From contig OY282356.1 of NCBI GenBank assembly GCA_958295535.1, forward strand, positions 1,945,614 to 2,009,613: 64,000 nucleotides of DNA. The letters run 5' to 3'. This stretch comes from Gemmatimonadota bacterium (GTDB taxonomy: Bacteria; Gemmatimonadota; Gemmatimonadetes; Palauibacterales; Palauibacteraceae). The position numbers and the translations under genes are program-made. A model generated the notes under the pieces. It did not search any database. It was given only the letters and a program-made list of their open reading frames with translations, and was not told the DNA's origin. Below, piece after piece: positions 23,877 to 58,173 of this stretch; the stretch's first letter is position 1, and each line of letters starts with the position of its first letter.

Positions 23877-25847
23877 TCATGGGCGGAACTCCACCTTCCA
23901 TATGTTATCCAAACCGCCGTCTGCGAGGACATACTGGCCGGTTGAGAGGACGGAGATACCGTATTCCGGAAGAGGGATTTTCGCTAGGCATTTGTCGTCG
24001 AATATCGCGCCCCAATCGTTGAAGTAGAAGTCCAGGTCGTCGAAGGCGTACTGCTTGCGATCATCGGGAAGGTCGTTCACGTCGACCGGGTAAAGGTGCA
24101 GAAAGAACACGGCCTCCGTGTCGGCGGAGGTGCACGGATCCTTAGCGTAGATCAGCGCGTCCTCGCGAAGATACAGGTCAAAGTCGGAGCGGACCGCCGG
24201 TTCGCCGGACAAGAGCGAGTCAACGGCGGACTGTCGCGCACCGGCACTGTCATAGGCATCGTTCACTCTGTAGATGGCACCATCGGCAAGTTCCGCCACC
24301 GGCTCCAACGGGAGCGGCGACTCCATCTGCAAGAGGTCGCAATTTATTTGGGAGCGTTCGCCCGCGCCGACCCATACGACGTACTCTTCGGGTTCCCCGT
24401 ACCGCCGGGATTCCAGGATGGCCCGCTCGAACCAGCGCTGGCAATCGTAGATGTTCCGCAGGTTCCGCCGCGGCACCGGAACCCAGGTCACCCGCGTTCC
24501 CGTAATCCCCGCGTTCCACCGGAGTACGTTGGGGTCGTTGCTGTAGTACCGGTACTGGCCGGAGGCGGGGTTCGCACGGACATATTCCACCAGCTCGGAA
24601 TCCTCCCAGTACGCCGTGTTGAAACTCTGGCCGATGTACCCCGATTCCAGGGCTTCGGCGGTCAATTGCAGATTCCGCTGCACCGAGACGCCGATATGCC
24701 AAGCACCGCCGATAAGCGCGAGAGCAATCAGCGCCCGCCGGACCACGGACATCCTCCCCGACGCCCTGCTGCTCAGGAGTCCATCCAGCCAGAACGCCGC
24801 GACGAACAGCAGCGGGACGTAGACCGGCACGAGGTACCGGCTATCTATGCCTTGCTGGGCCGTGAACGGCACCACCACGGCCATGATCGCAAGGTACGAC
24901 AGCGCGAAGCCCCCGAAGACGGAAGACGCCCGGCCCGGGCGAGGGGTGATGAGGAGAAGCGCCGCCAGCAGCAGAACCATACCGGCAATCAGCCACGGCG
25001 AGTGCTGCAACTGCCAGTGGATCGGGGACGACGGGTCGGCCCACCCGTGGAACACCTCGACGATCTGGCCAAGCGAATCGAACAGGGACTGTCCCGACGC
25101 TAAGGACCTGTCCCCGGCGAGAGTTTCGGAGACCAGTAGGTTGCGCGCCAGCACAGCCGCGAGCGGGAGCGAGGAGATGGCGCCGAAGGCCAGGGCATGC
25201 TTCAACCGCTCTCGTACCGGAGTATTGCGGCGCAAAAAGAGCATAAGGACTGCGGAGAAGATGAGCGCGACCCCTACGTACCTCGTCGTCGCGGCCAGCG
25301 CGGCGAATGCGGCGGAAAGCGCGAGGCCCCGCACGCCGCTGCGTCGGTTCAGGAACGACTCCAGCAGCATCAGGGCGAGGAAGGTGAACAAGACGAAGAG
25401 GGGTTCGCTCAGCAGGGTCGAAGCGGAATGCGCGAGGGGGAGAGACGCCATCACCGCCACTGCTGCGCCGAGCGCGAGCAGCCGCGACTCGAGACGCCGG
25501 CTCAGCCAGAGACCCGACACCAGAATGAGCAGGCCGAAGGCGGCCGCGTTCAGGAACCGGCCTCCGTCCACCGGCTCGATGCCGAACAGGCTCAGGAACG
25601 CCATCGCCATGGGGAGGAAAGGCGCAAAGAGCACCACTTGCCCGCCGCCGGGACTCAGCAGACCCTCTCCGGCGGCCAAGCTCTCGGCTGCCGCCAAGTA
25701 GTTGAAGGCATCGTTGCCGAGCGCCGCGCCGTAGGTGGACGTACGGATGAGGATATGCGCCGTGCCCAGAGCCGCGACGAGCGCGATGAGCGCGGGAAGG
25801 AAACGGCGCCCCCCATCCCCATGCGCCCATTTGAAAGCGTCGTTCAC
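23877..25847 (-). CDS. ArnT/PMT_2-like GT-C membrane glycosyltransferase, paralog 1, with shared C-terminal domain
   Basis: An N-terminal TM helix is followed by the first-loop motif GNDAFNYLAAAESLAAGEGLL (ArnT-like D-x-x-x-Y...A..L..G.G), then ~10 TM helices and a periplasmic C-terminal region. It ends in the CTD VRSDFDLYLREDALIYAKDPCTSADTEAVFFLHLYPVDVNDLPDDRKQYAFDDLDFYFNDWGAIFDDKCLAKIPLPEYGISVLSTGQYVL. Confidence 0.75.
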   Translation of the reverse strand: MNDAFKWAHGDGGRRFLPALIALVAALGTAHILIRTSTYGAALGNDAFNYLAAAESLAAGEGLLSPGGGQVVLFAPFLPMAMAFLSLFGIEPVDGGRFLNAAAFGLLILVSGLWLSRRLESRLLALGAAVAVMASLPLAHSASTLLSEPLFVLFTFLALMLLESFLNRRSGVRGLALSAAFAALAATTRYVGVALIFSAVLMLFLRRNTPVRERLKHALAFGAISSLPLAAVLARNLLVSETLAGDRSLASGQSLFDSLGQIVEVFHGWADPSSPIHWQLQHSPWLIAGMVLLLAALLLITPRPGRASSVFGGFALSYLAIMAVVVPFTAQQGIDSRYLVPVYVPLLFVAAFWLDGLLSSRASGRMSVVRRALIALALIGGAWHIGVSVQRNLQLTAEALESGYIGQSFNTAYWEDSELVEYVRANPASGQYRYYSNDPNVLRWNAGITGTRVTWVPVPRRNLRNIYDCQRWFERAILESRRYGEPEEYVVWVGAGERSQINCDLLQMESPLPLEPVAELADGAIYRVNDAYDSAGARQSAVDSLLSGEPAVRSDFDLYLREDALIYAKDPCTSADTEAVFFLHLYPVDVNDLPDDRKQYAFDDLDFYFNDWGAIFDDKCLAKIPLPEYGISVLSTGQYVLADGGLDNIWKVEFRP

Positions 25848-30098: not shown

Positions 30099-30845
30099 TC
30101 ACAAGCGGTTCATCCGCTTGAACAGGCGCTCCGGGACAGCGCGCAAGACGAACATGATCGGACGCCAGATCCGGCGCACGTAGATCACATCGCGGCGGCG
30201 GCGAATTGCCGCCACGACCGCGGCGGCTACCTCTTCCGGGGTCGCGGTCAGCCGCTCCGGCAGGTCCATGCCGTCGGTCATGCGCGTACGCACGAAGCCC
30301 GGCTTGACCGTCACCACATGGGCGCCGGAGGCGGCCAGCCGGCCGCGCAGACCGGAGAGGAAAGCGGTGAACCCCGCCTTGGCCGAACCGTAGACGTAGT
30401 TCGCGGCCCGTCCCCGCTCGCCGGCAACCGAGCTGACGCCGACCAGGACGCCGCCGCCGCGACGCTCGAAGCGCTCTGCCAGCGCCCCCATCAGCAGCGC
30501 GGGGCCGACATAGTTGGTGCGCATCACGCGCTCGGCGGCGGCACAGTCCCGCCGACTTTCCGCCTGGTCGCCGAGCAGCCCGACGACGCACACAGCCACA
30601 TCGGGCAGCGGATCGAGCGTGTCTAGCAGCGAGACGCCACCATCTTCATCGAGCACATCGCACCGATGCGCGGTCACGGCGACCCCCGCGCGCACTCGGA
30701 TGTCGCGCACCTCTCTCTCCAGCCGCGCCCCGTCGCGGGCCGCGAGCTGCAATGCGCAGCCGTCTTCCGCCAGCGTGCGCGCGATGGCGCGGCCGATACC
30801 CGACGTGGCGCCGATCACCAGCGCTGTCTCGACTCTGCCGTTCAC
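30099..30845 (-). CDS. dprE2: DprE2-family short-chain dehydrogenase/reductase (polyprenyl-phospho-2-keto-pentofuranose reductase homolog)
   Basis: 248 aa. VIGATSGIGRAI (TGxxxGxG), SSVAGERGRAANYVYGSAKAG (catalytic S/Y/K), KPGFVRTRM and a C-terminal IMFVLRAVPERLFKRM. It is colinear with mycobacterial DprE2 (Rv3791: LLGGTSEIGLAI / [21 protein letters not shown] / RPGQVRTRM / YVMMVLRHIPRSIFRKL; from memory). 4-bp overlap with the upstream GT-C. Confidence 0.8.
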   Translation of the reverse strand: MNGRVETALVIGATSGIGRAIARTLAEDGCALQLAARDGARLEREVRDIRVRAGVAVTAHRCDVLDEDGGVSLLDTLDPLPDVAVCVVGLLGDQAESRRDCAAAERVMRTNYVGPALLMGALAERFERRGGGVLVGVSSVAGERGRAANYVYGSAKAGFTAFLSGLRGRLAASGAHVVTVKPGFVRTRMTDGMDLPERLTATPEEVAAAVVAAIRRRRDVIYVRRIWRPIMFVLRAVPERLFKRMNRL

Positions 30846-33133
30846 GGTACGGCTTTCCCGCCATCCGCCGACTCGACAACATCGAAGCTGCCCTCCCAGA
30901 TCTTCTGGCCCTCGCCGGTGAACTGGCCGGTGCGGATCGCGGTGATGCCGTAGTCGGGCAGATCCAGCCGGGCTACGCAGACTCGTCCGTCGACAAGGTG
31001 GTTCCTCAAATCAAAGTCGAGATTGTCGAAGCCGTACTGCTTGCGATGGCCGGGGAGGTCGTTCCTGTCAACCGGGTCCAGATGCACGAAGAACATTGGT
31101 TCGGCATCCTCCGGACTGCATGAGTCCTTGGCGTAGATGAGGCCGTCTTCAACAAGATACACATCCCAGTCGGAGCGGATGGTCGGCGGGCCGTCTCCGG
31201 CCAGTCTTGCCATGTAATCGCCCATCGGCACTGTTTCGATCCTGACCGTCTGGAGCGCATTGCGGGGCAGCACGAGCGCGGCCACGCACAAGCCCGTTTG
31301 CGTTCGCGTCCAGGCTTTGGCGACCGTTTCCTCTCCCGGACCAACCCCTGACAACACTATCAACTCGTTCGGCGCACAATTCCTGACGAACGCCTGCGTC
31401 AGCCGGCCGTCCACGATCAATCCGATGCTATCCGACTGGCGGTCGAAGTGGGGTTCAATCCTCTCCCAAGTCCTGGCGACGGTATTTTCATCTGCCGGAT
31501 TTTCATCTGTCGGCAGCCCGATGGGCCGTAGTTGGAGTTCCACTCCATTCAGGATGCTTGGCAGTCTCTCAAAGTGCTTGATTAAGGCCAAATGAGTTAT
31601 TCCGGCGCTATCCGCGTTTCCCGTGTGGAAGTAGTCATAAGAGTTGACCAAGCCATCCAGGTTCACCACTGGAAAGCGCGAGAAATACCCGATGGTGCCG
31701 CCCATGTCCCGCGCCCCGAACACGCCGTCCTCGGGATGCACGCGATTCATAATCTGCGTACCCCCATAAACGGCTTCAGTCCATTCATTGTTAGAAACGG
31801 CCTTGATCCATTTGTCGTCAGTTCTGGTTGAGACGCTGATCGCTTCAGCACGCCGAAATGGCTCGGTGAAATCGGCCTTGGCAAACAGGGATACCGCGGC
31901 GGCAATTGCAATGCCCACGCTCAGAATGTTTGCCGCCCAAGGCGACCTCGGTCCGATGAAACGGCGGATGAAGTAAATGGCGACGTAACCTCGCACGGGA
32001 ACGATCAGCGTCATCAGCAGGTACGCCGGGACAAAATACCAAGGCCAAGGCCCCAAGGAAGGGTGAATCGTGAGAACAGTCTGCGCGAATTTGGCCAGAT
32101 GGCCGGCTGCCAAACTGAACACGCCCACCAGAAATGCCAGCTGCAGCCAGTCCTCCCGACTCCGGGAGCGGCGGGCGAACCACCAAACGAGCAGGACATA
32201 GAAGCAGACCTCCAGCGCGACCAACAGCTCGTAGTCGAAGGCGGGAAGATGAAGGATGTCCCGGAAGTTCTGAACGAAGCTGTACCCGCCTTCCCGCTCC
32301 CACCGCTGCTGCGACCACATCTGCTTGGTTGCGCCGCTCACGGGCGTCACGCCCCCGAAGACGGTACCGTTATATGCGAAGTACACGAGGATGCCGACGA
32401 CCGCGCCCAGTAGTGGTGCGACGTGTTCATCGCGAGCACGGAATGGCCAACCCCTCTCGGGGGTGCCGAGGCCCTCTCCATCTCCCTCGACAGGGGGGAG
32501 TGACTCACGCCTCGACCACTCGACGAAGCACAGCGCCGCGGTCGCCGCCAGCGATATGGCGATGTACTCCAGGCGCACCCAGGGCAGGACAAAGGCGACC
32601 GCGGCCAGCGTCCACTTCCACCGCGCCGGGTTTCGTGCAAAGAGACAGACGGCCAGAATGAACAGGCCCAGCATGAACAGCGCCGCCGCCGCTTCCATTC
32701 CTGCAGTCATGAAGGTGATGTGGTAGAGCATCGGCAGCGCGGCGAACATCAGATACCACGGCATGCGCGCCAGCCGGGCGGCCGCGGCGACGAGCGCCAC
32801 GCCGCCGGCCACGAGCATGATCTCGAACGCCTTGATGGCGAACAGCGCGGCTTCCTTGTCGAATGCCCAGTAGAACGGCGTGATCAGAAACATCCAGATC
32901 GGATGATATCCGTTGGTGCGCGTTATGCCGCCGTCGAAGGTCGAGAACTTCCCCTCGGCCAGGTTGCTGGCGATCTGGAAGTAGTAAAAGGCGTCATCGT
33001 GCGTGTTGGAGATAAGGCTGATGAGATCGAAGCGGCCGAGCATGTACCAGGCGAACCCGGCCCCGTACGCCAGGATGCCCGCGACGAACAGGACGAACAG
33101 CGCGTTGCTCAGCCGGGAAGACGAGGTCCTCAC
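30842..33133 (-). CDS. ArnT/PMT_2-like GT-C membrane glycosyltransferase, paralog 2, with shared C-terminal domain
   Basis: First-loop motif THDDAFYYFQIASNLAEGKF, ~12 TM helices and a large periplasmic domain. CTD: TIRSDWDVYLVEDGLIYAKDSCSPEDAEPMFFVHLDPVDRNDLPGHRKQYGFDNLDFDLRNHLVDGRVCVARLDLPDYGITAIRTGQF. It lies between dprE1 and dprE2 homologs with 4-bp overlaps on both sides. Confidence 0.75.
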   Translation of the reverse strand: MRTSSSRLSNALFVLFVAGILAYGAGFAWYMLGRFDLISLISNTHDDAFYYFQIASNLAEGKFSTFDGGITRTNGYHPIWMFLITPFYWAFDKEAALFAIKAFEIMLVAGGVALVAAAARLARMPWYLMFAALPMLYHITFMTAGMEAAAALFMLGLFILAVCLFARNPARWKWTLAAVAFVLPWVRLEYIAISLAATAALCFVEWSRRESLPPVEGDGEGLGTPERGWPFRARDEHVAPLLGAVVGILVYFAYNGTVFGGVTPVSGATKQMWSQQRWEREGGYSFVQNFRDILHLPAFDYELLVALEVCFYVLLVWWFARRSRSREDWLQLAFLVGVFSLAAGHLAKFAQTVLTIHPSLGPWPWYFVPAYLLMTLIVPVRGYVAIYFIRRFIGPRSPWAANILSVGIAIAAAVSLFAKADFTEPFRRAEAISVSTRTDDKWIKAVSNNEWTEAVYGGTQIMNRVHPEDGVFGARDMGGTIGYFSRFPVVNLDGLVNSYDYFHTGNADSAGITHLALIKHFERLPSILNGVELQLRPIGLPTDENPADENTVARTWERIEPHFDRQSDSIGLIVDGRLTQAFVRNCAPNELIVLSGVGPGEETVAKAWTRTQTGLCVAALVLPRNALQTVRIETVPMGDYMARLAGDGPPTIRSDWDVYLVEDGLIYAKDSCSPEDAEPMFFVHLDPVDRNDLPGHRKQYGFDNLDFDLRNHLVDGRVCVARLDLPDYGITAIRTGQFTGEGQKIWEGSFDVVESADGGKAVP

Positions 33134-34422
33134 AGCGCAAGCCTCCGCGACAGCTCGGAGGCGAATCTGGACGGCGCCCCGGGCGTCTCGGCCCGGATCC
33201 CCTCGAAGGCGTCAAAACGGGGGTAGCCTTCCCGCACCCGTTCCGTCGCACAGTGGGCATCTTTGGCAAAATAGACGCGCCCCCCGTACCGGTGGGTGAT
33301 CTCGTCGAGCCCGTCGAGCAGCGCCGCAGTGCCGGCGCGCAGCGGAAAGTCGAGCGCCAGCGTGTAGCCCTCCATGGGGAACGACATCAACCCGTCCCCG
33401 GCGGGGCCGAACAGCTTGAGCACCCCCAGGAACGAGCTTTGTCCCGATGCGGCGGCGCGCTCCAGAAGGGCGGCGATCCCGGCCGCGCTTTCGTCTTTGG
33501 GCAGCACGCACTGGTACTGAACGAACCCTCGCCGCCCGTAGAGGCGGTTCCACGCCTCTATCCGATCCAGGGGAAAGAAGAAGCGGTCGAAATGGACCGG
33601 CCGCGCCCCGAACCGTGCGCGTGCCCGCCCGTGCCGGTAGCAGAGCTCGTTGAAGAGGCCGACCGAGATCCTGTTGAGCAGCGCGGACGGCGCATCGGCG
33701 GGAATCCGGCATTTGACGCCGGGGGCCGGACGCAAGGGATCGGACGCCAGGCGCGGCGGCAGTGCGCTGCGCTCCATGAACGCGCCGCGCGTCATCACCG
33801 AGCGGCCCAGTCCCGCGCCCCGCGCCAGACAGTCGATCCAGGCCACGCTGTAGGGCCAGTCGCGGGACTCCTCGAACAAGGCCATCGTCTCGTCAAGGTC
33901 GCGCGCGGCCAGGGTCTCCACTGTCACGAACGCGGTATCGACGGGCCTCAAGCGGAAACGCGCAGATAGGATCACCCCGGTGAGACCCATCCCCCCCAGG
34001 GTGGCGCGGAAGAGATCGGCGTTCTCCTTGCGGCTGCATTCCCGTATCGTGCCGTCCCCGCTCGCCAGCGTCAGCGATTCCACATGTGCGCCGAAGGTCC
34101 CGTCGCGATGATGGTTTTTCCCGTGCACGTCAGCCGCGATCATGCCGCCGACGGTGACGAACTTGGTCCCCGGCGCCACCGGCGGGAACCAGCCGCGCGG
34201 CACGAACGTCGCCAGGATGTCCGCGAGCAGCGCGCCGGCCTCGCAGTCGAGCAGGCCCGTCCCGGCGTCGAACGCCCGCATCCGGTCCATCGCGAGCATC
34301 GACAGCGTCAGTTCCGGGTTGAGCGCCGCGTCGCCGTAGGACCGCCCGTTGCCGCGAGCGATCAGCGTCTTGCCGCGATGAAGCAGACCGGGCAGGTCCC
34401 CGCGCTGGCGCAAGCGCTCCAA
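33130..34422 (-). CDS. dprE1: DprE1-family FAD-dependent oxidase (polyprenyl-phospho-pentofuranose 2'-oxidase homolog)
   Basis: 430 aa. IARGNGRSYGD, GTKFVTVGGMIAADVHGKNHHRDGTFGAHV, GFVQYQCVLP, FLGVLKLFGP and GGRVYFAKDAHCATERVREGYPR. They are colinear with Rv3790 DprE1 (ARGLGRSYGD / [30 protein letters not shown] / GFLQYQFVIP / FLNVFKLFGP / [23 protein letters not shown]; from memory). Confidence 0.85.
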   Translation of the reverse strand: MERLRQRGDLPGLLHRGKTLIARGNGRSYGDAALNPELTLSMLAMDRMRAFDAGTGLLDCEAGALLADILATFVPRGWFPPVAPGTKFVTVGGMIAADVHGKNHHRDGTFGAHVESLTLASGDGTIRECSRKENADLFRATLGGMGLTGVILSARFRLRPVDTAFVTVETLAARDLDETMALFEESRDWPYSVAWIDCLARGAGLGRSVMTRGAFMERSALPPRLASDPLRPAPGVKCRIPADAPSALLNRISVGLFNELCYRHGRARARFGARPVHFDRFFFPLDRIEAWNRLYGRRGFVQYQCVLPKDESAAGIAALLERAAASGQSSFLGVLKLFGPAGDGLMSFPMEGYTLALDFPLRAGTAALLDGLDEITHRYGGRVYFAKDAHCATERVREGYPRFDAFEGIRAETPGAPSRFASELSRRLAL

Positions 34423-34531
34423 CCGGCAATCGACGGATGGATACCGACCCCAGCCCGAGAGGATTATGCGGCCCGCTCCCGGAACGCGAAGCGCGGACCA
34501 AGAAACGCGGGCGCCGCCGTGCCCGCGCGCG

Positions 34532-36103
34532 TCACAGCGCGGCCGCGAACGCGGCCAGGACGCCGATGCCGGTCAGCCAGCTCGCCCGGTCGCGTAGCGC
34601 AAAGATCAGGGGGTCCTCGTTATCCGGCATCCGTTTGGAGGTCTCCCCTCCCCCACGACCGATGAGGAGCGCGATGCGCCCCAGCCAGTAGAGCAGCAGC
34701 GGACAGATCATCCACAGAAACTCGGGGCGGGCGTAGCGCTCCCCCGTCTCCGGACTCTGGATGTAAAGAGTCAGAATCACCACCGAAGCGACGCCGGTCG
34801 CCGCGCCCAGCGCCGCCATTACCTGGAAGTCTTCGGCAAGATAGGCGCGGCCGCCGGAGGCGGACCGGCCGGATCCGCGCAGTTCGCCTTGGCGCTTGGC
34901 GATGGCCAGCGCGAGGAACAGGAACAGGAAGAAGGCGATCAGCCAGGGCGACAGCGGGACCGACACTGCCGCCGCGCCGGCCAGCACACGGAACGCGTAG
35001 AGCATGGCGAGGATGACCACATCGATGAAGGTCTTCCGCTTCAGCGACAGCGAGTAGGCGCAGGTCATGGCCAGATACAGAAGGACCCAAAGCCCGGCCA
35101 CGGCGGACAGCCAGAAAGCCAGAGCGAGACCGCCCGCCGCCAGCGCGGCGCCAATGCCGATCATCGGCAGCAGAGGCGCCCTCCCCGCCGCCATCGGGCG
35201 GTGGCGCTTGGCGGGGTGCCCGCGGTCGTGCGGAAGATCGAGCAGGTCGTTCAGCAGGTAGCCGCCCGATGCCACAGCCGCCAGGGCCGCAAACACCCCG
35301 GCGGCCACTAGGTACGGCCCCGCGTCGGTCTCGTGCACCGCGGCGAGGGGCACGAACACGAGCAGGTTCTTCACCCACTGGTGCGGCCGCAACGCCCGGA
35401 ACCAGTCGAGCGGGCGACCGCCGAGCCCGGGCAGGAGCCGAGCCTCGCCGTCAAGCGCCCGCACCTTGCGCGCCAGCTCCGGCGGCAAGCCGACCCCGGC
35501 GGCGCGCCGCGCCCGCTTCCAGACCGCCAAGTCGCGGCGCCCGCTGCCAATGTAATCGAAGCCGCGGTCGCCAAAGCGGGCGGCCAGAGCAACTGCCCTG
35601 GCCTCGCCCACAAAGTTGGTGCGGTCGTCCGAGGCGAGACAGCCCGCCGCCCCCACCATCTCGGCGAGCGGCGAGACCGCCTGCGCATCGGAGGCGGAGA
35701 CCAGCCACACCGAGCGTCCCGCGGCCTGCGCGGCGGCAATCTCCTCCAGCACGGCCGGGTTCAACGCCAGCGTGCCGGCTGGCAACGGAACCGCCTCCGC
35801 GATCCTGCGCCTCAGTCCGGCACGTCCCCTCGCCATGGCGGCGGCCAGCCAGAACGGCAGGGCGAACAGGCTGAGCGGCGAGACCGAGAGCAGCCGGGCG
35901 ATCCCCTCGGCCAGCAGATCCCCGCCGACCAGCAAGCCGTCGACATCGACGACCAACGGCGGCTCGGCAGCGCCTCGCAGGTTGTCCGGCACAGCCTCGG
36001 CCCGGCTTCCGCGGATCAGTTTTCCGGCCCCGTCATCCAGCGCCGTCATAAGCCTTCGCCACGGGTGCGGACGGCGCGGTAATCGCTCTGATCGTGTTGC
36101 CAT
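34532..36103 (-). CDS. Fusion protein: N-terminal HAD-superfamily phosphatase domain + C-terminal UbiA-family polyprenyl-phosphate phosphoribosyltransferase (DPPR-synthase-like)
   Basis: 523 aa. The N-terminal ~200 aa carry HAD motif I VVDVDGLLVGG and later SVWLVSASD. The C-terminal ~300 aa are polytopic, with the UbiA Asp-rich motif LLNDLLDLPHDRGHPAKRHRPMAAGR (NDxxDxxxD). The start may be an internal Met (e.g. MTALDD) because the listed start overlaps the upstream GT-C by 71 nt. Confidence 0.75.
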   Translation of the reverse strand: MATRSERLPRRPHPWRRLMTALDDGAGKLIRGSRAEAVPDNLRGAAEPPLVVDVDGLLVGGDLLAEGIARLLSVSPLSLFALPFWLAAAMARGRAGLRRRIAEAVPLPAGTLALNPAVLEEIAAAQAAGRSVWLVSASDAQAVSPLAEMVGAAGCLASDDRTNFVGEARAVALAARFGDRGFDYIGSGRRDLAVWKRARRAAGVGLPPELARKVRALDGEARLLPGLGGRPLDWFRALRPHQWVKNLLVFVPLAAVHETDAGPYLVAAGVFAALAAVASGGYLLNDLLDLPHDRGHPAKRHRPMAAGRAPLLPMIGIGAALAAGGLALAFWLSAVAGLWVLLYLAMTCAYSLSLKRKTFIDVVILAMLYAFRVLAGAAAVSVPLSPWLIAFFLFLFLALAIAKRQGELRGSGRSASGGRAYLAEDFQVMAALGAATGVASVVILTLYIQSPETGERYARPEFLWMICPLLLYWLGRIALLIGRGGGETSKRMPDNEDPLIFALRDRASWLTGIGVLAAFAAAL

Positions 36104-37931
36104 CTTTGTCCGTACAGTACGCGTAGGCCCTCAGGCGATGGCCAACGTCCGCGGCAGCCGGGGTGTATTGATAGGAGGCCCAGCGGGGCGCGACTTTGGT
36201 CCAACCGGTCGCATCGCTGCCCCGTTCCCATTGCCATGGTTGGAATCTGGCAGACCCGCATTCAAGCCGGGCCGACAATCTGACGCCGAACGGCTCGCCT
36301 GCCACCGGAGCGACAGCGCTGATGAAATAGGCGGGAGCGGGATCGGCGTCGCTGCGAGTTACGCGATAGATCGAACCGTCGGACAACTCGGCCACCAGCT
36401 CCAGTCCCAGCAATTCCCTCAACACGCCGATAGTGGCCGGATACTGCATCGAATCCATCCAAGCGACATAGTCGCCGGGCACAGCCAGTTCTATCTGCCC
36501 TCTCATCGTATCCAGATCGAAGGGAAGATAGTGAAGGTCCGCATGATTCGCGCGGAGGTATATGAAAGATGACACATTGCTGAATATACGGTTCGCCAAT
36601 AGATGCTCTTCAACATACCGCATGACATCCGAGCGGGCCAATACCGGCACCATTCCCATGCCTCGTCCCTCGTTGTTCAATACGATTTCACGCACGTTCA
36701 GCGCCGCCTGTACAGCCAGCCACAGGGAAAGGGCTGTCGCCAGGGTAGCCACCAGCAGGTTCGCCGTTCTGCCCTCTCCCCCGACGATTCTGTTTGAATC
36801 GCCGGCAACCCGCCGGAGGGTTCTCAGGACCTTTCTGGCCGGATCGAGCCCAAGGAACTTGTCCAGCGCAAACACTGCCGCGAACAGGAGCGGGAGATAC
36901 ATAGGAGACAGGTAGCGGCCGCCGAGGGGCGTGAGATCGAAGCCCGCTTGCGCGGCCGTGAGAAAGACGAGGTACACCAGGGCAAAGCCGCCAAACAAGT
37001 GGAAGGGCTCCATCCGGCGCCGTTTCCCCTGCCAGGCACGAACGAACGCGTGGCCGACGGACACCGCCAGCGCCAACAGGGCTACTCCGACCAGCGCCGC
37101 GGCGGCCACCCTGACGCTCCCGGACGGCAAGTAGAGGAATACCCACTGGGCCAGATCGCTCAGGAATTTGTCCAGAATCTCCTGCACCGTATGCGGCGAC
37201 GGGCCGATGCGCCCGCTGAGTCTTCCGTGGAACAGGACGTTCCGCAACAGCCACAGCGCCACCGGCAGCGCGGCGATCGACAGGTACAGGCCGATGCGCT
37301 TCGCTTTATCCAACGGCACGACGCCGCGCTGGAAGATCAGCAGGGGTAAAGTGGCCATGATCAAGGTGACGCCGCTATAGCGGGTCAGAAAGGCCAAGGA
37401 AGCGAACGCCGCCGCCCAAATCAGGTCCGAACGCTTGCCGGTATCCAGAGCCGTGGAAGTCCGAACCAGAGAGAGCGTCACGAACAGGATAAAGGGAGTC
37501 TCGGAAACTGCGTGAGACGCCATCCTGGTCAAGGGGATTGCCAGCATGATGGCGACACAGGCCCAAAGGACCAGGACATGGTGTCGGACATGCCGCCGCA
37601 AGTATTGACCGGCGACGAATAGAGTCAGTCCGAAGGCGGCGGCATTCAACGGCCCGGCGACATCGTAGGGGACAAACACAAAGAGACCGGCAGCGGCGAG
37701 CAGCATCGGATACAGCGGCGGCCAGTGCAAATAGGGCCAGCCGTGAACTTGAACGAAGCCCTCTCCCGCCGACAGACTCTGGGCCGCGGACAGGTAAGCG
37801 GCCCAATCCGCGCTCAGTCCCACTCCGTAAGTGACTTGTCGCGCCAGGATGAGTACCGTGCCCAGCGCTGCAAGGGCGGCAAGGAGCAGGGTGAAACGAT
37901 CGGGCCGCCTGTCTGGCGCCCGTCTACTCAT
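36033..37931 (-). CDS. ArnT/PMT_2-like GT-C membrane glycosyltransferase, paralog 3 (C-terminal WxW module instead of the shared CTD)
   Basis: First-loop motif ADWAAYLSAAQSLSAGEGFV, ~11 TM helices and a periplasmic C-terminal region. It ends FQPWQWERGSDATGWTKVAPRWASYQYTPAAADVGHRLRAYAYCTDKDGNTIRAITAPSAPV, the WxW module shared with 38528..41164. Confidence 0.7.
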   Translation of the reverse strand: MSRRAPDRRPDRFTLLLAALAALGTVLILARQVTYGVGLSADWAAYLSAAQSLSAGEGFVQVHGWPYLHWPPLYPMLLAAAGLFVFVPYDVAGPLNAAAFGLTLFVAGQYLRRHVRHHVLVLWACVAIMLAIPLTRMASHAVSETPFILFVTLSLVRTSTALDTGKRSDLIWAAAFASLAFLTRYSGVTLIMATLPLLIFQRGVVPLDKAKRIGLYLSIAALPVALWLLRNVLFHGRLSGRIGPSPHTVQEILDKFLSDLAQWVFLYLPSGSVRVAAAALVGVALLALAVSVGHAFVRAWQGKRRRMEPFHLFGGFALVYLVFLTAAQAGFDLTPLGGRYLSPMYLPLLFAAVFALDKFLGLDPARKVLRTLRRVAGDSNRIVGGEGRTANLLVATLATALSLWLAVQAALNVREIVLNNEGRGMGMVPVLARSDVMRYVEEHLLANRIFSNVSSFIYLRANHADLHYLPFDLDTMRGQIELAVPGDYVAWMDSMQYPATIGVLRELLGLELVAELSDGSIYRVTRSDADPAPAYFISAVAPVAGEPFGVRLSARLECGSARFQPWQWERGSDATGWTKVAPRWASYQYTPAAADVGHRLRAYAYCTDKDGNTIRAITAPSAPVAKAYDGAG

Positions 37932-38443
37932 CGAAGCGGACCTCGCCTTCTCATGATGGCGATGCCGGACACCAACGCGCCGACAATCACGCCAGGGTAG
38001 TCGCCACTATCCTCATAGACAATTTTGTCGTCGAACGGACTGACAAGGAATGGCAGCGTCGCTCTGGCGATGCGGTAGAACTGATTCTCCAGGAAGTTCC
38101 CCCATTCAATCGCGGAGTTGTCCTCATGGAACCCTAAGCTATACGTCATGGACTTCACCGTAGGCAGTTCAGCCAGCGGGACCTCGCCGTCCAATGCCCG
38201 GTATTCGCTGCCGAGGTTGAAAGATAGCGCCGCCATGCCGAAAAGCAGGGTGACGACGCCCAGCTTCAGGTAGCGGCCGAACGGAGGCGCGGTGACGCAG
38301 CGCTTGATTCGACTTGCCAAACTCGGAGGAGCGAGCCGACGCACCCGGTTCAGCTCCCTCGCCATGCCCAAGACGATAAACGGCAGCAGCAGCGCATAGA
38401 CGTGCCATCCCAACAGCAACGCCGCGCACGCCTTGACGAGCAA
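37928..38443 (-). CDS. Hypothetical small membrane protein (171 aa)
   Basis: ORF translationally coupled to the downstream GT-C (4-bp overlap). N- and C-terminal hydrophobic helices (LLLGWHVYALLLPFIVLGM; GVIVGALVSGIAIM) flank a ~100-aa segment. No family recognised. Confidence 0.35.
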   Translation of the reverse strand: MLVKACAALLLGWHVYALLLPFIVLGMARELNRVRRLAPPSLASRIKRCVTAPPFGRYLKLGVVTLLFGMAALSFNLGSEYRALDGEVPLAELPTVKSMTYSLGFHEDNSAIEWGNFLENQFYRIARATLPFLVSPFDDKIVYEDSGDYPGVIVGALVSGIAIMRRRGPLR

Positions 38444-38527: not shown

Positions 38528-41164
38528 TCATCGGCGGAATTCCGCTTCCCAGATATTGCTTGAACCGTCGACAACGAGCACGTACTGGCCGGTTCTGATT
38601 TTGGAGATGTCGTATTCCGGGAGAGGGACGTTCGCCAGACATTCGCCATCGAATCTGTCGCCGTGCCGGTCGAAATGGAAATCCAGGTTGTCGAAGCCGT
38701 TCCGCTTGCGATCGTCGGGGAGGTCCTCCGGGTCGATGGGGATGACGTGTAGAAAAAACATCGCTTCGGTGTCGGCTGGGGCGCACGGTCGCTTAGAGTA
38801 GGTCAGCGTGTTTTCGCGGATATGTATGTCGAAAGTGGAACGGGCCGCAGGCTCGCCTGAAGCCGCCCCCGAAAAATGGCTGTCAAACCACCGCCGTTTC
38901 TCCTCGAACCAGTGCTCCATTTCCCAAAGGAGGTTCCCATCGCGGTCAACCTGTCCGGCCCGGATGCCGAAGAGGTCCTTCGTCGGGAGCTGGCGCTCGG
39001 CGACGCAGGCGCCGTCGTTCTTCCAGAAACTATGGTGCCATTCAAAATCCAGGGTAGCGCGTTCCGGCATTCCACTCTCGGAATCCAACGAATAGACGCT
39101 CAACGGGAACCGCGACCGGTTTTCGTCTTCCCGGATGCAGCTCCGGTTCCTATAGATCAGCCTGTTTCCGTGGAGGTACACATCGTACCCGGAACGAATG
39201 CCGCGGTCCGCTTCGGAAGCGCCCGCCGCTCCCCTTCCGTCTTCGCTTCCAAGCGGCACCAACACTTTCAGGATGTCCGGCTGTACGGGCTCGGACGGCC
39301 TGGTAGTCGCTCCTACTCGGTTGCCGAGCTGGTCTTCGTAGTACACCGAAGCGCGCAGGCGATGCCCGACATCGGCAACCGTGGGGGTGTACACGTGGTT
39401 GGGCCGTTGAACCGGGAGGCTCGCCCAGCCACCCGCATCGCCGCCTTTCTCCCACCGCCACGGGTTCCCTCGCCGCTCTCCGTGGGAGCGGTTGACATAG
39501 ACATAGAACGGCTCCCCCTCCACCGGAGCATCGGAACTGAGGAACATGGCTGGCCGGGACTCCAGCCGGGACTCCAGGGAGTCGCGTTGCAAGCGATACA
39601 GCTTGCCGTCCGCCAGCTCCGCCACCGGCTCCAGCAAGCGCTCCCGAGACAAGGCGCTTCGGAGATCCTCGTCCTGCTGCCGAGAGCATCTTCCCCGCGA
39701 GTCGACGAAATCGAGGACATATGCCTCTCCGCCGTCAAGCGCTTTTGACCATGCGAACGGTAGATGATCCGGTTCGCACGGCAAGCTGTAATGGCGGCGC
39801 AGATTGTCGGCGTACAAAGCCGTGACGGGTCGGACATTGCTCCAGATCGTGCCTGTCAGAGCCGCCTCCCGAATGTACGACACGCTCTCCGAACGCCTCC
39901 ACCGCGGGTCGGCATACATGTCGTGTCGCGCACCGGCATTCCAGAGCGGTATCTCGCGGTAATGCAGCGCAACCAGCCAGGCCGCCTGGAGGACAAGCGC
40001 CAACATACAGGATGGCACGAGAGCCCCCCGCTGGAACTCGACTCGCCGCCGGCGCGGAACGACTCCCCGCGGCGCCCGCCGGCGCACATGCCGGAGGGCG
40101 CCATCCATCAGCAACAGCGCCGCGAACAGGAGCGGAATGTACACCGGAGCGAGATATCTCCACTGCAATCCACTCCAGGTGTTTCCCGACATCATCGCGG
40201 CGACGAGCAGCGTCAGGTACGCGAGCGCAAAACCGCCGAACACGCGCAACGGCCTCCAGGCAACACCCGAAGCAGCGGAAGCACCCATTTTCCGATCCGA
40301 GCGGCGCCAGAACGCATGGCAGGCAGTCATCACGAGCGTCAACAGAACCGGGGCGGTCAACCCGACGAGCCACCAGTCCAAAACCGCGATTCGCAAGACG
40401 TCGGCCACGATGTAGGGAAAGGAGTAGAAAACCCCAGCTACTCTGGAACCGACCGGATATCCGACAAGCAGATAGTTCCGCAGCATCCACAGACCCGTCG
40501 GCGCCGCCGCTATCAGCACATAGACGGCGATACGCTTCATCTTCTCCCGTGGCGCAACCCGCGCCGCAAGCAGCAACGGGACCACCGCCAGGATCGCGGA
40601 AGCGCCCATGTAGCGGGTTAGCCAAGCCAACGCGCTGTACGCCGCCGCCCGGATCAGGGCTGCGCGGCCGCCGCCGCCCAGGTGGGCATCGATCTGCGTC
40701 AGCGAGAGCGTCACGAACAGAATGAATGCCGGCTCGCTCATGGCCTCGGACGCGATCTCGGCGAGCGGAAGGGCCAGCGCGATCGAGAGACAGCCCCACA
40801 GCCACAGGAACCGGGAGTGAAGATGGCCCCGCATCCACCAACCAGCGACCAGAACGGTCAGCCCGAAGATTACGGCGTTGAGCGGCCCGGCGATGGCGTG
40901 GGGGTCGAGCCCGAACAGCCCCCCGCTTGCGAGCATCGCCGGATACAGCGGCGGATAGGTCACCAAAGAGCGACCCAACAAATCGACAAAGCCATCACCC
41001 GCCAGGAGATTGCGGGCCACCGTGATGTAGTTGACGGCATCCCAACCTATGCGTGGTCCGTGGCCCGCCTGCCGCAGGAGCACCAGACCCGCGCCCAGCG
41101 CGGCGGCCGCGACGAGGTGGAGTTGCCCCGGTTTCGTGAACAGTTTAGTGACTTGGGTTTTCAT
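38528..41164 (-). CDS. ArnT/PMT_2-like GT-C membrane glycosyltransferase, paralog 4, with WxW module and two copies (one degenerate) of the shared C-terminal domain
   Basis: Probable start MKTQVTKLF (ATG 41164); the listed ORF extends to 41266. First-loop motif GWDAVNYITVARNLLAGDGFV, then TM helices. The periplasmic region contains NPWRWEKGGDAGGWASLPVQRPNHVYTPTVADVGHRLRASVYYEDQLGNRV. Next is a degenerate CTD (IRSGYDVYLHGNRLIYRNRSC...LDFEWHH...GACVAERQLP...IRAGQ). A canonical terminal CTD follows (ARSTFDIHIRENTLTYSKRPCAPADTEAMFFLHVIPIDPEDLPDDRKRNGFDNLDFHFDRHGDRFDGECLANVPLPEYDISKIRTGQYVL). Confidence 0.7.
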   Translation of the reverse strand: MKTQVTKLFTKPGQLHLVAAAALGAGLVLLRQAGHGPRIGWDAVNYITVARNLLAGDGFVDLLGRSLVTYPPLYPAMLASGGLFGLDPHAIAGPLNAVIFGLTVLVAGWWMRGHLHSRFLWLWGCLSIALALPLAEIASEAMSEPAFILFVTLSLTQIDAHLGGGGRAALIRAAAYSALAWLTRYMGASAILAVVPLLLAARVAPREKMKRIAVYVLIAAAPTGLWMLRNYLLVGYPVGSRVAGVFYSFPYIVADVLRIAVLDWWLVGLTAPVLLTLVMTACHAFWRRSDRKMGASAASGVAWRPLRVFGGFALAYLTLLVAAMMSGNTWSGLQWRYLAPVYIPLLFAALLLMDGALRHVRRRAPRGVVPRRRRVEFQRGALVPSCMLALVLQAAWLVALHYREIPLWNAGARHDMYADPRWRRSESVSYIREAALTGTIWSNVRPVTALYADNLRRHYSLPCEPDHLPFAWSKALDGGEAYVLDFVDSRGRCSRQQDEDLRSALSRERLLEPVAELADGKLYRLQRDSLESRLESRPAMFLSSDAPVEGEPFYVYVNRSHGERRGNPWRWEKGGDAGGWASLPVQRPNHVYTPTVADVGHRLRASVYYEDQLGNRVGATTRPSEPVQPDILKVLVPLGSEDGRGAAGASEADRGIRSGYDVYLHGNRLIYRNRSCIREDENRSRFPLSVYSLDSESGMPERATLDFEWHHSFWKNDGACVAERQLPTKDLFGIRAGQVDRDGNLLWEMEHWFEEKRRWFDSHFSGAASGEPAARSTFDIHIRENTLTYSKRPCAPADTEAMFFLHVIPIDPEDLPDDRKRNGFDNLDFHFDRHGDRFDGECLANVPLPEYDISKIRTGQYVLVVDGSSNIWEAEFRR

Positions 41165-41305
41165 GCGGCTTCGCGGAGGCGAAGGAGGTATATTGGCAGC
41201 CCTGATCGGAGTGGTGGAGGAGCGAGTCCGGGCGGCGTTGCCGAACGGCCATGTCGAGGAAATCAAGCACGAGTTCGGCGCACTGTCGTCTGCGGAGCGG
41301 CTCTA

Positions 41306-54855: not shown

Positions 54856-56201
54856 CCTGCACCTTCCGACGCCGCCGCGACGGTCCGGGCAACCTCCCGG
54901 CCCTGCCGGATCGCATAGTTCGTGCCCCGGTCTTCCGGATAGATCTGGGCCATCGTCGCCAGAAACAGGTTCGTCACAGGCATGCGCGTAGGGGGGATCA
55001 GCAGCCGGTAGCCGCGCTCCACGACGGGCTGCGCGTAGCGCGCGCGCCAGACGTGGGCAGCCAGTATCCGGTCGTCCGTCAGGTCGGGAAACATCCGCCG
55101 CAGGTGTTCGAGCGTGAACGCGACCGCTTCCTCGTCCGGCATCCCCCACAGCGCGTCGCTCTCGGGCAGATAGCGGGACAGATACACGATGTGCCGCCCG
55201 GCGTAGGTCGAGGCAGGCTCGAAGTTGGTGTGCTCGATGACTCCCACGAAGGGGAAGCTTGGGTCGTTGACGTTCAGCCAGTAGATGTCCGACAGGCTGC
55301 GGTCGAGCTCGAGCACGACGCACACATTGGCCAGATAGCGGATGCGCCGCAGGCCGTCCACGTAATCGCCCGGCGCGTGAGGCGCCACGAGGTCGGCGAC
55401 GATGGGCAGCGCCGGCGTCGCGATCACGGCGTCGGCGGCCAGCGTCGCCTCCGGCGTGACCACGCCGGTCCCCCGCCCGTCGCGTACCCGCAAGCCCGTG
55501 ACCGGAGCTCCGGTGCGGATTTCTCCACCTTGGTCTCGGATGGCCAGGGCCAGCGCGTCGGCGAGGGCTGCGAAGCCGCCGCGGTAATAGGCCAGCCGTT
55601 CCCTGCCGCCTCTGCCGCGGCTGCCGCCCCTGAGCTTGAGCTTGTTCCAGAACCACACCGCCGCCACCTCTTCCGCCAAGTCGCCGAACTTGCCCCGCAG
55701 GAGCGGCGCCCACACCACCCGGTAGACCCGCTCGCCACCCATGTCCCGCAGCCAGTCGGCCGCGGTGCGGTCTTCAAGGCCGCTCCACTCCTTCACCCGG
55801 CGCACGCGCAATGCCAGCAGCCCCAGCCGGATGCGGTCGAAGAACGGAAGGGGCGAGAAGCGCAGGAGGTCGAGGGGCGTCGAGAGCTTGAAGAAGTCGT
55901 GGGCGTAGTACGTGCCGGTCCGGGTAGGACGCAGCACCACCTCGGCCGACCGGCCTAACTCCGCGATGAGATTCATCACATGAACATCGTTGGTGAACCA
56001 GTGGTGGTAGAACTTCTCGAGCCGCGCACCGCCGGCGGGAAAGCTGCCGGCGAGGCCGCCGACTTCGGCGTCCCGCTCCAGCACCGTGGCGCGTACGCCG
56101 CGCCGGCCCAACTCGTAGGCCGCGGCTAGCCCGCAGAAGCCGCCGCCGATCACCGCGACATGGGGCCGGGCAGACGCCGGCCGTCGTGGGCTACTTGTCA
56201 A
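54852..56201 (-). CDS. FAD/NAD(P)-binding oxidoreductase (amine-oxidase/phytoene-desaturase-like fold), intact copy B
   Basis: Rossmann dinucleotide motif RPHVAVIGGGFCGLAAAYELGRRGVRATVLERDAEVGGLAGSF, then ~400 aa (..YYRGGFAALADALA..; ..GVVTPEATLAADAVIATPALPIVADLV..). The start is ambiguous: TTG 56201 overlaps the upstream GT-C stop; GTG 56153 is the alternative. The upstream part of the listed 542-aa ORF is out-of-frame overlap with GT-C B. Confidence 0.7.
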   Translation of the reverse strand: MTSSPRRPASARPHVAVIGGGFCGLAAAYELGRRGVRATVLERDAEVGGLAGSFPAGGARLEKFYHHWFTNDVHVMNLIAELGRSAEVVLRPTRTGTYYAHDFFKLSTPLDLLRFSPLPFFDRIRLGLLALRVRRVKEWSGLEDRTAADWLRDMGGERVYRVVWAPLLRGKFGDLAEEVAAVWFWNKLKLRGGSRGRGGRERLAYYRGGFAALADALALAIRDQGGEIRTGAPVTGLRVRDGRGTGVVTPEATLAADAVIATPALPIVADLVAPHAPGDYVDGLRRIRYLANVCVVLELDRSLSDIYWLNVNDPSFPFVGVIEHTNFEPASTYAGRHIVYLSRYLPESDALWGMPDEEAVAFTLEHLRRMFPDLTDDRILAAHVWRARYAQPVVERGYRLLIPPTRMPVTNLFLATMAQIYPEDRGTNYAIRQGREVARTVAAASEGAG

Positions 56202-58173
56202 AACGAATTTCCCCTTCCCAGAGGTGTGCGGTGGAGCCGTCCTCGCGGACGAGGAACTGGCCGGTGCGGACGCGGGTGATGGGGTAATCGGGAAGCTTGC
56301 GCAGAGCGACGCACCGCTCGGCTGACCGAAACCAACGGCCACCACGGTCGTTGACGCGGAAGTCGAGGTTGTCGAAGCCGTACTGCTTTCTGTGATCAGG
56401 AAGGTCGTTCTCGTCCGCCGGGACAACATGCAGGAAGAAGGTTTCCTGCGCGTCCTCTGCACCGCACGACTCCTTGACATAGATCAACATGTCCTCGGTG
56501 AGATGGACATCGAAGGTGGAGCGGATTGACGGCTTACGAGTCAAGATTGCCTCCAAATCTCTCACCGCATCAGTAGCGTGACGGTTTATCAAGGCTGCCG
56601 TATCTTCAATCAGATAAACGTCATGGGGTCCAAACACGACCTGCTCAACCGAAAGCCCGGACATATCCGGTAGCCAGGGACCGACAAACCAGATTCTTCC
56701 GTTTGCGATGCCGAGCCAGTAGGCCAAGTCAGCCATCTCACGGAGACACGAATTGGAGGAGTTCCCGCACCAACCGGAGGTCCCATAGTGGTAATTGGCC
56801 GGTCTTTCTTCATTTCGTTGATAGAACTGCAAGATCGGGACTGCCCCCCAGCCTGCGTAGACCATGTCCTCTTTCCGCATCCGTTCTTTCAGTACGGCGA
56901 GAACGGATTTGATGTTGTTACGTATCTGGTACGGACTGTCCTGCCGAATGGCGCCCACCCCGGCAAGCACTGTCGCGCCGGCCATCGCAACGAGCAAGGC
57001 CGGCGTCGTCCACCCCCGGCGGGTGAGCGAGGACAAACGACCGGCGGTCCAATGAAACGCCAAGCCGACCGCCAGGAAGACAATCGGACCCAGATAGATG
57101 ACTTGGCGGGTGCCTCCAAGCGGATATATTCCCAGCACGGCGGCACCGACAGAAACCGCAAGGGAAAGCGAAAATAGAACTGCGATGGCGCCGTCATGGG
57201 GCTTTCCTCGAAACTTTCCGAGGAATGCTGCGACCAGGAGGATCGCGAATGCGGCAAGTGCCGCTATCGCAACGACATCCGGCAAATGATATGTCAATAG
57301 ACTCCAGATCCCGTCAATCGAAAACTCGAAGACCTCGAAGATCGAGTGCGGGTAGAATGTTCCCTGATAGTAATACTGTCGCAGATAGCCGGTCGGGGCG
57401 AAGTCCGGTTGACCCCACTGATGGCGTACAGTCACCAAGTAGCTGACGGTACTCCCCGCCAGGAAGAACCCACAGGGCGCGACCAAGTCCAGGCGTCGTT
57501 TCAACCAGCCACCGATCCGGCCAGGATAGGCACTCCACCTTGCCTGTCCGGAGACGCGTGGAGCGACGAGGGCGGCGCCAATGACGGCGGCGCCGAACAG
57601 GACCAAACCGTACTGGAGCAACGGCGCAAGGAACAGCGAAACGCAAAGCAGGGCCTTCCGGCCGTCCCGCAGATGTCGCAGCAGCCCCGCCATCATCAGC
57701 ACGGTAAGCAGTGCGTCGATAGAGTATTCCCGCACATCCTGGGCGTGCCAGATTGCTTCAACGGAAAGCGTGGCGAGCAGGGCCGCCAGAAACGCGGCGC
57801 CCCGAGCGACGCCGAGACGCGGCAGCAAGAAGAGCATCAAGGCGATGGTCAGAACGCTGGCCGTCGCCGGCACGATTCGAACGCTGAAGGGCGTGCTCTC
57901 GACTTTCTGGACCGCGTACAGGACCAGGGGGTACAGGATTGGAGAGGAGTTAGCGTAACGGGTACCGGGGATGACTTCCGAGAGCGCACCTCTCGAAATA
58001 TTGGCCGCTGCCGCTTCGTCATGCCGTAGAGACTTCTCCGAAAGGTCATGGAAGCGCAGCCCCGCCGCGGCGACAAGCAGGCAGACACAGGCGGCGTAGT
58101 ACAGACGCGTTTTGCGGTCGCGGCCGAAATCAGCGATGCGCCGGGTCATGGCGCGCATCCCTATCGCTCGCAT
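56191..58173 (-). CDS. ArnT/PMT_2-like GT-C membrane glycosyltransferase, paralog B, with shared C-terminal domain
   Basis: 660 aa. LRHDEAAAANISRGALSEV first-loop motif, ~12 TM helices, CTD identical in motif to paralog A (...FFLHVVPADENDLPDHRKQYGFDNLDFRVNDRGGRWFRSAERCVALRKLPDYPITRVRTGQF). Confidence 0.75.
   Translation of the reverse strand: MRAIGMRAMTRRIADFGRDRKTRLYYAACVCLLVAAAGLRFHDLSEKSLRHDEAAAANISRGALSEVIPGTRYANSSPILYPLVLYAVQKVESTPFSVRIVPATASVLTIALMLFLLPRLGVARGAAFLAALLATLSVEAIWHAQDVREYSIDALLTVLMMAGLLRHLRDGRKALLCVSLFLAPLLQYGLVLFGAAVIGAALVAPRVSGQARWSAYPGRIGGWLKRRLDLVAPCGFFLAGSTVSYLVTVRHQWGQPDFAPTGYLRQYYYQGTFYPHSIFEVFEFSIDGIWSLLTYHLPDVVAIAALAAFAILLVAAFLGKFRGKPHDGAIAVLFSLSLAVSVGAAVLGIYPLGGTRQVIYLGPIVFLAVGLAFHWTAGRLSSLTRRGWTTPALLVAMAGATVLAGVGAIRQDSPYQIRNNIKSVLAVLKERMRKEDMVYAGWGAVPILQFYQRNEERPANYHYGTSGWCGNSSNSCLREMADLAYWLGIANGRIWFVGPWLPDMSGLSVEQVVFGPHDVYLIEDTAALINRHATDAVRDLEAILTRKPSIRSTFDVHLTEDMLIYVKESCGAEDAQETFFLHVVPADENDLPDHRKQYGFDNLDFRVNDRGGRWFRSAERCVALRKLPDYPITRVRTGQFLVREDGSTAHLWEGEIRFDK

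Follow-up and report, generated by a model that had tools for sequence, protein, structure and literature searches.

An internal copy of the C-terminal domain in a candidate GT-C glycosyltransferase of a Gemmatimonadota bacterium appears to be a conserved subtype rather than a relic

INTRODUCTION

The closest described counterparts of the locus studied here are the three-component extracytoplasmic pentofuranose glycosylation systems of Kelly et al. (2024), among them the one with the GT136 enzyme ORF12 of Citrobacter youngae O1, a GT-C-type glycosyltransferase whose C-terminal Ig-like carbohydrate-binding module (CBM) binds the acceptor O-polysaccharide (PMC11127046). Homologues of DprE1 and DprE2 are the mark of the arabinofuranose variants of pentofuranose systems, and the CBMs of EmbC and AftD are cited as acceptor-binding (PMC11127046). 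These mycobacterial arabinofuranosyltransferases (EmbA/B/C and AftD) are GT-C enzymes as well, use a polyprenyl-phospho-arabinofuranose donor that is made via UbiA-type, DprE1, and DprE2 enzymes, and bind the acceptor polysaccharide through extracytoplasmic β-sandwich modules (as summarized in PMC11127046). Here, we analyze a gene (38528..41164, minus strand) in a 64-kb stretch of DNA from a Gemmatimonadota bacterium (contig OY282356.1; the whole stretch is hereafter called the window). The gene encodes a GT-C candidate, which we refer to as the target, with a tail that ends in a small β-rich WxW module (W), an internal copy of a C-terminal domain (CTD) that we call B, and a canonical terminal CTD that we call A.

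The target resembles ORF12 in being of the GT-C type and in having a β-rich Ig-like domain after the last transmembrane (TM) helix with a predicted position outside the membrane. As in the ORF12 systems, a polyprenyl phosphoribose synthase with an N-terminal HAD part and a C-terminal UbiA part is co-encoded, and DprE1/E2 homologues are present as in the arabinofuranose systems; a donor pathway like that of EmbA/B/C and AftD is what we propose for the target. In contrast to the single CBM of ORF12, the target has W, B, and A, the likeness being one of architecture and gene set; acceptor binding, which was shown for ORF12, is proposed for the target, and a MATE flippase is not adjacent to it. 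A GT-C enzyme with a C-terminal β-sandwich binding module (GT136 ORF12, EmbA/B/C, AftD) is an already known kind of protein, and what is new is the domain family, which has no curated model or close solved relative, together with a position-specific B subtype. Our overall explanation, in which a GT-C candidate with a pentofuranose donor would bind its acceptor glycan through A and perhaps also through a constrained B sandwich repeat, appears to us probable though far from secure; our confidence is high for the statements on homology and conservation and moderate for the binding role.

RESULTS

The internal segment is a homologue of the terminal domain

A CTD profile built from five other paralogs of the window found two domains in the target, a terminal one at 143.2 bits and an internal one at 41.0 bits (independent E value 9e-15). 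A wider A-type profile of 229 non-identical instances, from which the target was excluded, gave the internal segment 61.9 bits, and the best of 2000 composition-matched shuffled sequences scored 9.3 bits, on which basis we rejected a chance resemblance of B to A. BLASTP against the other long open reading frames (ORFs) of the window matched the terminal ~110 residues to the C-termini of six proteins at 41 to 65% identity and yielded a weaker second set, in which the internal segment matched the same C-termini at 26 to 35% identity (E = 1e-5 to 1e-8). In an alignment of the eight CTDs of the window, C29, C77, G94, and Q95 (the last two belonging to the R-x-G-Q tail) and several core residues were invariant, B included. 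B lacks FFLH, in place of which it reads RFPLSVYS, and the DLP...GFDNLDF loop, its own loop being about six residues shorter and ending in ATLDF. The first-pass annotation of this DNA had described just this pattern of two lost signatures, two retained cysteines, and a retained R-x-G-Q tail, and the alignment bears it out.

The two domains were also compared in an AlphaFold 2 (AF2) model of residues 541 to 878 (m9c3a9cdfe625; 78-sequence alignment; mean pLDDT, the per-residue model confidence, of 76.8, with ~59 to 82 in B and ~80 to 95 in A), where B and A have the same strand order and the same short helix. Over 98 aligned positions of this one model, three-state secondary structure agreed at 81%, at a sequence identity of 32%. 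The two comparisons that the first-pass annotation had proposed, namely the internal repeat against a CTD profile and the predicted structures of the two repeats against each other, thus both came out in favor of a repeat, the first of them well above noise. The internal segment is a true CTD homologue, and hence the product of a domain duplication. In the window, B occurs as one full copy and one 21-residue remnant (60515..60577).

The layout of the protein and the positions of the features discussed below are collected in Table 1. Residue numbers throughout refer to the 878-residue form, to which an identical protein is present in a public protein collection (P0001); the upstream open frame, ORF 38528..41266 (minus strand), would give 912 residues from a TTG at 41266. 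All peptides quoted in the first-pass annotation could be located in the protein, and the order that it gave (WxW module, divergent CTD-like repeat, terminal CTD) stands: NPWRWEKGG begins at residue 567, YTPTVADVGHRLRASVYY at 592, IRSGYDVYLHG at 656, ATLDFEWHH at 703, and GIRAGQ at 733, followed in terminal A by FFLHV at 803, GFDNLDF at 823, and IRTGQ at 856.

Table 1. Positions of the target gene, its domains, and related or neighboring genes in the window.
Feature	Residues	Position	Strand	Scores and remarks
Whole target gene	1-878	38528..41164	-	878 residues from ATG at 41164; stop 38528-38530
Multi-pass membrane core, PMT/ArnT-like GT-C candidate	1-400	39965..41164	-	
Extracytoplasmic linker domain after last TM helix (predicted)	401-545	39530..39964	-	
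WxW module (W), small, β-rich		39245..39529	-	Motifs PWRWEKGGDAxGW ... YTPTVADVGHRLRASVYY
Internal CTD-like domain, subtype B		38906..39220	-	185 bits against B profile; 61.9 bits against A profile
Conserved inter-domain helix EHWFEEKRRWFDSHF		38867..38905	-	Always 3' of B; model helix 214-227; mean column identity 0.709
Terminal canonical CTD, subtype A		38534..38866	-	160 bits; FFLH, DLPDDRKRNGFDNLDF, two Cys, IRTGQ
Closest window paralog		36033..37931	-	40% identity over 613 residues; matches membrane part and W; W module at its end, no A or B
HAD-UbiA polyprenyl-phosphate phosphoribosyltransferase-like		34532-36103	-	NF006088 488.7 bits (cut-off 351)
DprE1-like FAD oxidase		33130-34422	-	DprE1 model 428.8 bits (cut-off 500)
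Membrane protein with A-type CTD		30842-33133	-	
DprE2-like SDR		30099-30845	-	DprE2 model 193.8 bits (cut-off 250)
Truncated paralog from a W-B-A gene		60131..60970	-	Without membrane core, W, and first two thirds of B

B is conserved as a subtype of its own

The internal copy recurs widely among relatives of the target. The 120 best database relatives are full-length and 56 to 76% identical to it, and 88 of them have the B-A pair, that is, a weak CTD match followed by a strong one; layout variants among the homologues include B-A-A, A-B-A, A-A-B-A, and B-A-B-A. Average-linkage clustering of 336 non-identical domain instances set the A and B types cleanly apart, with 105 instances in the B cluster (just 6 C-terminal; mean identity 0.67), 230 in the A cluster (mean identity 0.50; C-terminal in 209 of 224), and an identity of 0.32 between the clusters. 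Across 78 full-length B-A homologues, B had a mean pairwise column identity of 0.717, close to the values of the WxW module (0.715) and the membrane core (0.744), and A one of 0.609. The lower value of A may partly reflect an exchange of A cassettes between paralogs, a process of which the window has an example (see below), rather than weaker constraint. The gap fraction of B in the same set was 0.001. B has conserved motifs of its own (NRSC, RFPL.VYSLD, LDF.W, and GQVDRDGN.LWE), after which the conserved helix EHWFEEKRRWF follows.

Because B is more conserved than A and close to the level of the membrane core, it appears to be a functionally constrained, specialized subtype. The first-pass annotation had called it degenerate, and in the strict form of that view, B would be a decaying CTD relic with no function of its own that was kept just as a linker. 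The absence from B of both of the strongest A signatures, FFLH and GFDNLDF, is what such decay would produce, as are its scores of 41 to 62 bits on A profiles, compared to 143 to 165 bits for true A copies; however, a relic would hardly be better conserved than its intact partner and nearly free of gaps in 78 homologues, form a group of 105 instances that share their own motifs at 67% mean identity, or be modeled by AF2 as a folded sandwich. We rejected the decaying-relic reading on the conservation of B relative to A and regard it as highly improbable, and the term "degenerate" does not hold. While the duplication itself is ordinary repeat-domain evolution, the main value of the result is a corrected annotation, with two functional subtypes of one domain in place of a good copy and a wreck.

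An old duplication as the likely origin of B

A census of tail architectures at 76 loci from species-representative genomes counted 82 tails with A alone, 16 with A-A, 13 with W-B-A, 4 with W-A-A, 4 with A-A-A, and 2 with B-A. The W-A-A tails (L013, L014, and L016) are 36 to 38% identical to the tail of the target, and the membrane domain beneath them has no detectable similarity to that of the target. At a further locus (L018), the internal copy is intermediate, scoring 124.5 bits on the A profile and 81.6 bits on the B profile; its N-terminal half is B-like (SKYDVYL..RLIYVNRNC), and FFLH and the DLP loop are kept. The W-A-A tails and the intermediate at L018 together support a course of events in which an internal A diverged into B.

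B is 34% identical to its own A and 30 to 35% identical to the As of the other window paralogs. Because it is ~32% identical to every A and about equidistant from its own and those of other paralogs, the duplication that gave rise to it is old. Of the earlier description of an old internal duplication followed by drift, the duplication and its age therefore stand, but the drift does not, B being conserved. The near-equidistance does not, however, tell a local duplication from the import of a cassette. In the latter case, B would have entered by recombination with another paralog and become fixed in the family of the target later, a scenario that would account for the equidistance, for the occurrence of the same W-A-A tail on an unrelated membrane scaffold, and for the make-up of a truncated paralog in the window, in which two different A cassettes are combined (see below). 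A stand-alone or terminal B family that might have served as donor was not found, though, B being nearly always internal and upstream of A, and with A-A and A-A-A arrays being common, local duplication is the simplest source; we consider import unlikely.

Module duplication is recurrent in the family of the target, given that the linker domain is doubled in two homologues (P0012 and P0014), in which the "...HYALPCEP...LYRLR" segment occurs twice. As to whether the internal As that diverged into B did so once, a neighbor-joining tree of 82 instances gave no clean B split when the weakly B-like copy at L045 was counted as B (32 of 200 bootstraps), which leaves the case for B having arisen once less than firm.

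A candidate GT-C enzyme with an extracytoplasmic tail

Hydropathy analysis found at least nine hydrophobic segments in residues 1 to 400. The D and Y of DAVNY (within GWDAVNY, after TM1) are at least 90% conserved in 78 sequences, and a YPPLYP motif also lies in the core. The GT-C families with which the core was compared were the PMT and ArnT-like ones (Pfam PF02366 and PF13231): Two orthologues of the target, P0003 (75% identity) and P0016 (68% identity), exceed the gathering threshold of Pfam PMT (26.0 and 24.9 versus 22.7), and paralogs come near that of PMT_2, the one at 36033..37931 with 24.9 versus a cut-off of 26.1. The loop before the last TM helix (residues 357 to 381) contains 10 K/R, from which the tail is predicted, by the positive-inside rule, to lie outside the cell, and the two conserved Cys per domain fit an extracytoplasmic location. 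The target is accordingly described here as a candidate polytopic GT-C-type glycosyltransferase with an extracytoplasmic C-terminal tail. This tail is 478 residues long, and its W module scores 150.7 bits against a W profile and is modeled by AF2 with strands (pLDDT 65 to 88).

A putative arabinofuranose donor pathway next to the target

Downstream of the target gene, a same-strand run (30099..36103) encodes the HAD-UbiA protein, the DprE1-like and DprE2-like proteins, and a membrane protein with an A-type CTD (Table 1). The HAD stretch of the first of these covers residues 93 to 177 and the UbiA part residues 253 to 433, and the protein also scores 143 bits on a decaprenyl-phosphate phosphoribosyltransferase model. 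By its gene content, the run looks like a polyprenyl-phospho-arabinofuranose donor pathway of the Mycobacterium/Pseudomonas type. Elsewhere in the window lie two Wzx-like Polysacc_synt genes (5425-6789 and 22324-23637), a Wzy_C-like gene in which a weak W-like segment occurs, a GT2 gene, genes for two sulfatase-fold proteins, and a sulfotransferase-like gene, and the window is a surface-glycan island.

We propose the following mechanism for the target. In its tail, the linker domain and the WxW β module would be followed by two homologous FN3/Ig-like sandwiches, of which A is taken to be the canonical form and B an old duplicate that turned into a separate conserved subtype. Of the features of A, the core strands, the Cys pair, and the R-x-G-Q hairpin would survive in B, with the FFLH strand replaced and the DLP...GFDNLDF loop shortened, in an arrangement where B is apparently always followed by the conserved helix and then by a copy of A. 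The enzyme would move a pentofuranose, probably arabinofuranose, from a polyprenyl-phosphate donor made by the co-encoded HAD-UbiA, DprE1-like, and DprE2-like proteins onto a surface glycan. A, via its conserved loop, would bind the acceptor polysaccharide and keep the glycan near the active site, as in ORF12, EmbC, and AftD. B, with its own conserved surface motifs and helix, may bind as well, and it would serve as a second site whose specificity is altered or else as a rigid spacer that positions A. Since the neighboring genes appear to encode a polyprenyl-phospho-pentofuranose donor pathway, acceptor-glycan binding is the likely role of the tail sandwiches, by analogy with the described systems.

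Several results weigh against this proposal. The scores of the DprE1-like and DprE2-like proteins, though these are clear homologues, fall under the NCBIfam equivalog cut-offs, and no dedicated MATE or SMR flippase adjoins the GT-C genes. The membrane domain of the target itself has no Pfam match at E <= 0.1, and a search of the family profile against all Protein Data Bank sequences returned noise (E ~0.2, a cellulose synthase TM segment). In the C-terminal regions of the target and seven paralogs, neither A nor B was matched by any known CBM, FN3, Pfam, or NCBIfam model. Lastly, the CBM was dispensable for activity in the GT136 prototype (PMC11127046).

Fold and extent of the A/B family

A model of A alone, predicted with AF2, had a pLDDT of 92.9 and a predicted TM-score of 0.83. 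A Foldseek search with A found nothing at E <= 1e-3 and a best TM-score of ~0.5, the best structural matches being FN3 domains of cytokine receptors and fibronectin, which is a generic likeness of fold. The modeled domain is a generic FN3/Ig-like β-sandwich. Compared with other sandwiches of this class (Ig-like domains of GH2 enzymes, CBM56, and CBM9 among them), to which sequence identity is 3 to 13%, the A/B family has additional features, namely a long DLP...GFDNLDF loop, which is conserved, and short helices.

When 1.84 billion cluster representatives were searched with a profile, 2,490 proteins were retrieved at E <= 1e-3, 1,061 of them at E <= 1e-30, with between 1 and 10 copies per protein. 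Among the proteins with several copies are a Wzy_C protein of the O-antigen-ligase type, GT-Cs of the PMT type, and a polysaccharide deacetylase. The largest array seen comprises ten tandem A-type CTDs in a Wzy_C-type protein of 1851 residues (P0245). From these matches, A/B is an unannotated repeat family attached to extracytoplasmic glycan enzymes. Tandem CBM repeats in carbohydrate-active enzymes are known to sub-functionalize, and the A/B family is like them in its variable copy number (1 to 10), its divergence within proteins, and its position-specific subtypes; it is unlike them in that its carriers are membrane-embedded synthases and ligases rather than secreted hydrolases and in that its ligand is a matter of inference.

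The fold and the distribution of the family also bear on a different role, in which A and B would be FN3-like, "eukaryotic-like" modules for protein-protein or host interaction (oligomerization, envelope docking, or host contact) and not glycan binders. Modules of this kind are said to be enriched in host-associated bacteria; the FN3 domains of cytokine receptors and fibronectin are the best structural matches of A, and the family spans several phyla, with a concentration in metagenome-assembled genomes (MAGs) of a sponge-like taxon mix (Entotheonella, Latescibacteria, Binatia, Dehalococcoidia, Caldilineaceae, and Nitrospirales). Yet the domain is always found on the extracytoplasmic end of glycan enzymes (GT-C, Wzy_C, or polysaccharide deacetylase), and no free surface protein was seen, the short stand-alone matches resembling gene-call fragments; moreover, FN3-like folds are the commonest CBM scaffold. 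An interaction role thus strikes us as doubtful, and acceptor binding stays our preferred role for the sandwiches.

Distribution across phyla

The full-length W-B-A orthologues (L001 to L011) come from MAGs labeled Latescibacteria, Gammaproteobacteria, Bryobacterales, and Dehalococcoidia and share 63 to 76% pairwise identity without taxonomic signal: A Bryobacterales and a Gammaproteobacteria copy are 76% identical, and two Dehalococcoidia copies 68%. Because identities of this level extend across phyla with no taxonomic signal, the sequences suggest horizontal spread within a shared habitat. In the same set of loci, copies also come from Entotheonella, Binatia, and Nitrospirales MAGs, and several genomes have two to four copies, some of them in tandem. 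The mix of taxa resembles that reported for high-microbial-abundance sponges, from which we infer a possible sponge origin.

Taking these observations further, one may picture A/B as a new family of glycan-handling repeats, in 1 to 10 copies on GT-C, Wzy-like, and deacetylase enzymes, that has spread horizontally together with the DprE1/E2-type arabinofuranose pathway among unrelated phyla of one habitat, probably the marine-sponge microbiome; its carriers would share a pentofuranose surface glycan, with B as a second-site reader or ruler. We put this forward tentatively, as an idea with less in its favor than against it. Of wider use is the extent of the family, which comprises ~2,500 sequence clusters, has no Pfam or NCBIfam model, and shares its gene islands with an arabinofuranose donor pathway that resembles the mycobacterial one. 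If the domains bind the acceptor glycan, they would offer a handle to find and purify surface polysaccharides of uncultured, probably host-associated bacteria, and the A/B pair would provide a natural setting in which to study the sub-functionalization of tandem binding modules.

Truncated and possibly shuffled copies in the window

What the truncated paralog retains of B is its last ~30 residues (60515-60577), whereas its A is complete (60134-60481). In tblastn, residues 393 to 515 of the target matched 60970-60599 and residues 721 to 877 matched 60604-60140, in the same frame and at 65% identity; together with the retained B tail, these matches uphold the earlier claim that the truncated gene derives from the W-B-A architecture. 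In the region 60128-60500, its last 75 nucleotides share 96% identity with the 3' end of gene 56191..58173 (56191-56265), and the remainder of its A is 76% identical to the A of the target (38582-38891). Such a mosaic suggests that CTD cassettes have recombined or undergone gene conversion.

The W module is common to the target and its closest window paralog, where it is 50% identical (36060-36257; 70.5 bits) and scores 85 bits against the W profile. Weak WxW-like segments (9 to 16 bits) lie elsewhere in the window, namely in a Wzy_C/O-antigen-ligase-like gene (6678-8627, plus strand), inside the protein encoded at 2569..4992 (4507-4686, minus strand), and at the right end (63846-63992, minus strand), so that W, too, may have been shuffled as a cassette.

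Three further observations were made in the window. The neighboring CTD-bearing membrane proteins at 52882-55713 and 56191-58173 (minus strand), which have weak Agl23/PMT-like matches, are 87% identical in nucleotide sequence over ~1.97 kb, pointing to a recent tandem gene duplication, and the former has an additional N-terminal extension of ~280 residues relative to the latter. An orphan half of an A-type CTD (25885-26076, minus strand; 51 bits over profile positions 52 to 111) is located immediately upstream of gene 23877..25847; its DNA sequence shares 83% identity with 60147-60285, and it probably remains from a further CTD-bearing gene that was truncated. Between the target and its closest window paralog, a 171-residue ORF (37928-38443, minus strand), which has no Pfam or NCBIfam match, has a hydrophobic N-terminus, and its start overlaps 36033..37931 by 4 nucleotides; it could encode a genuine small membrane protein or be a fragment of a gene.

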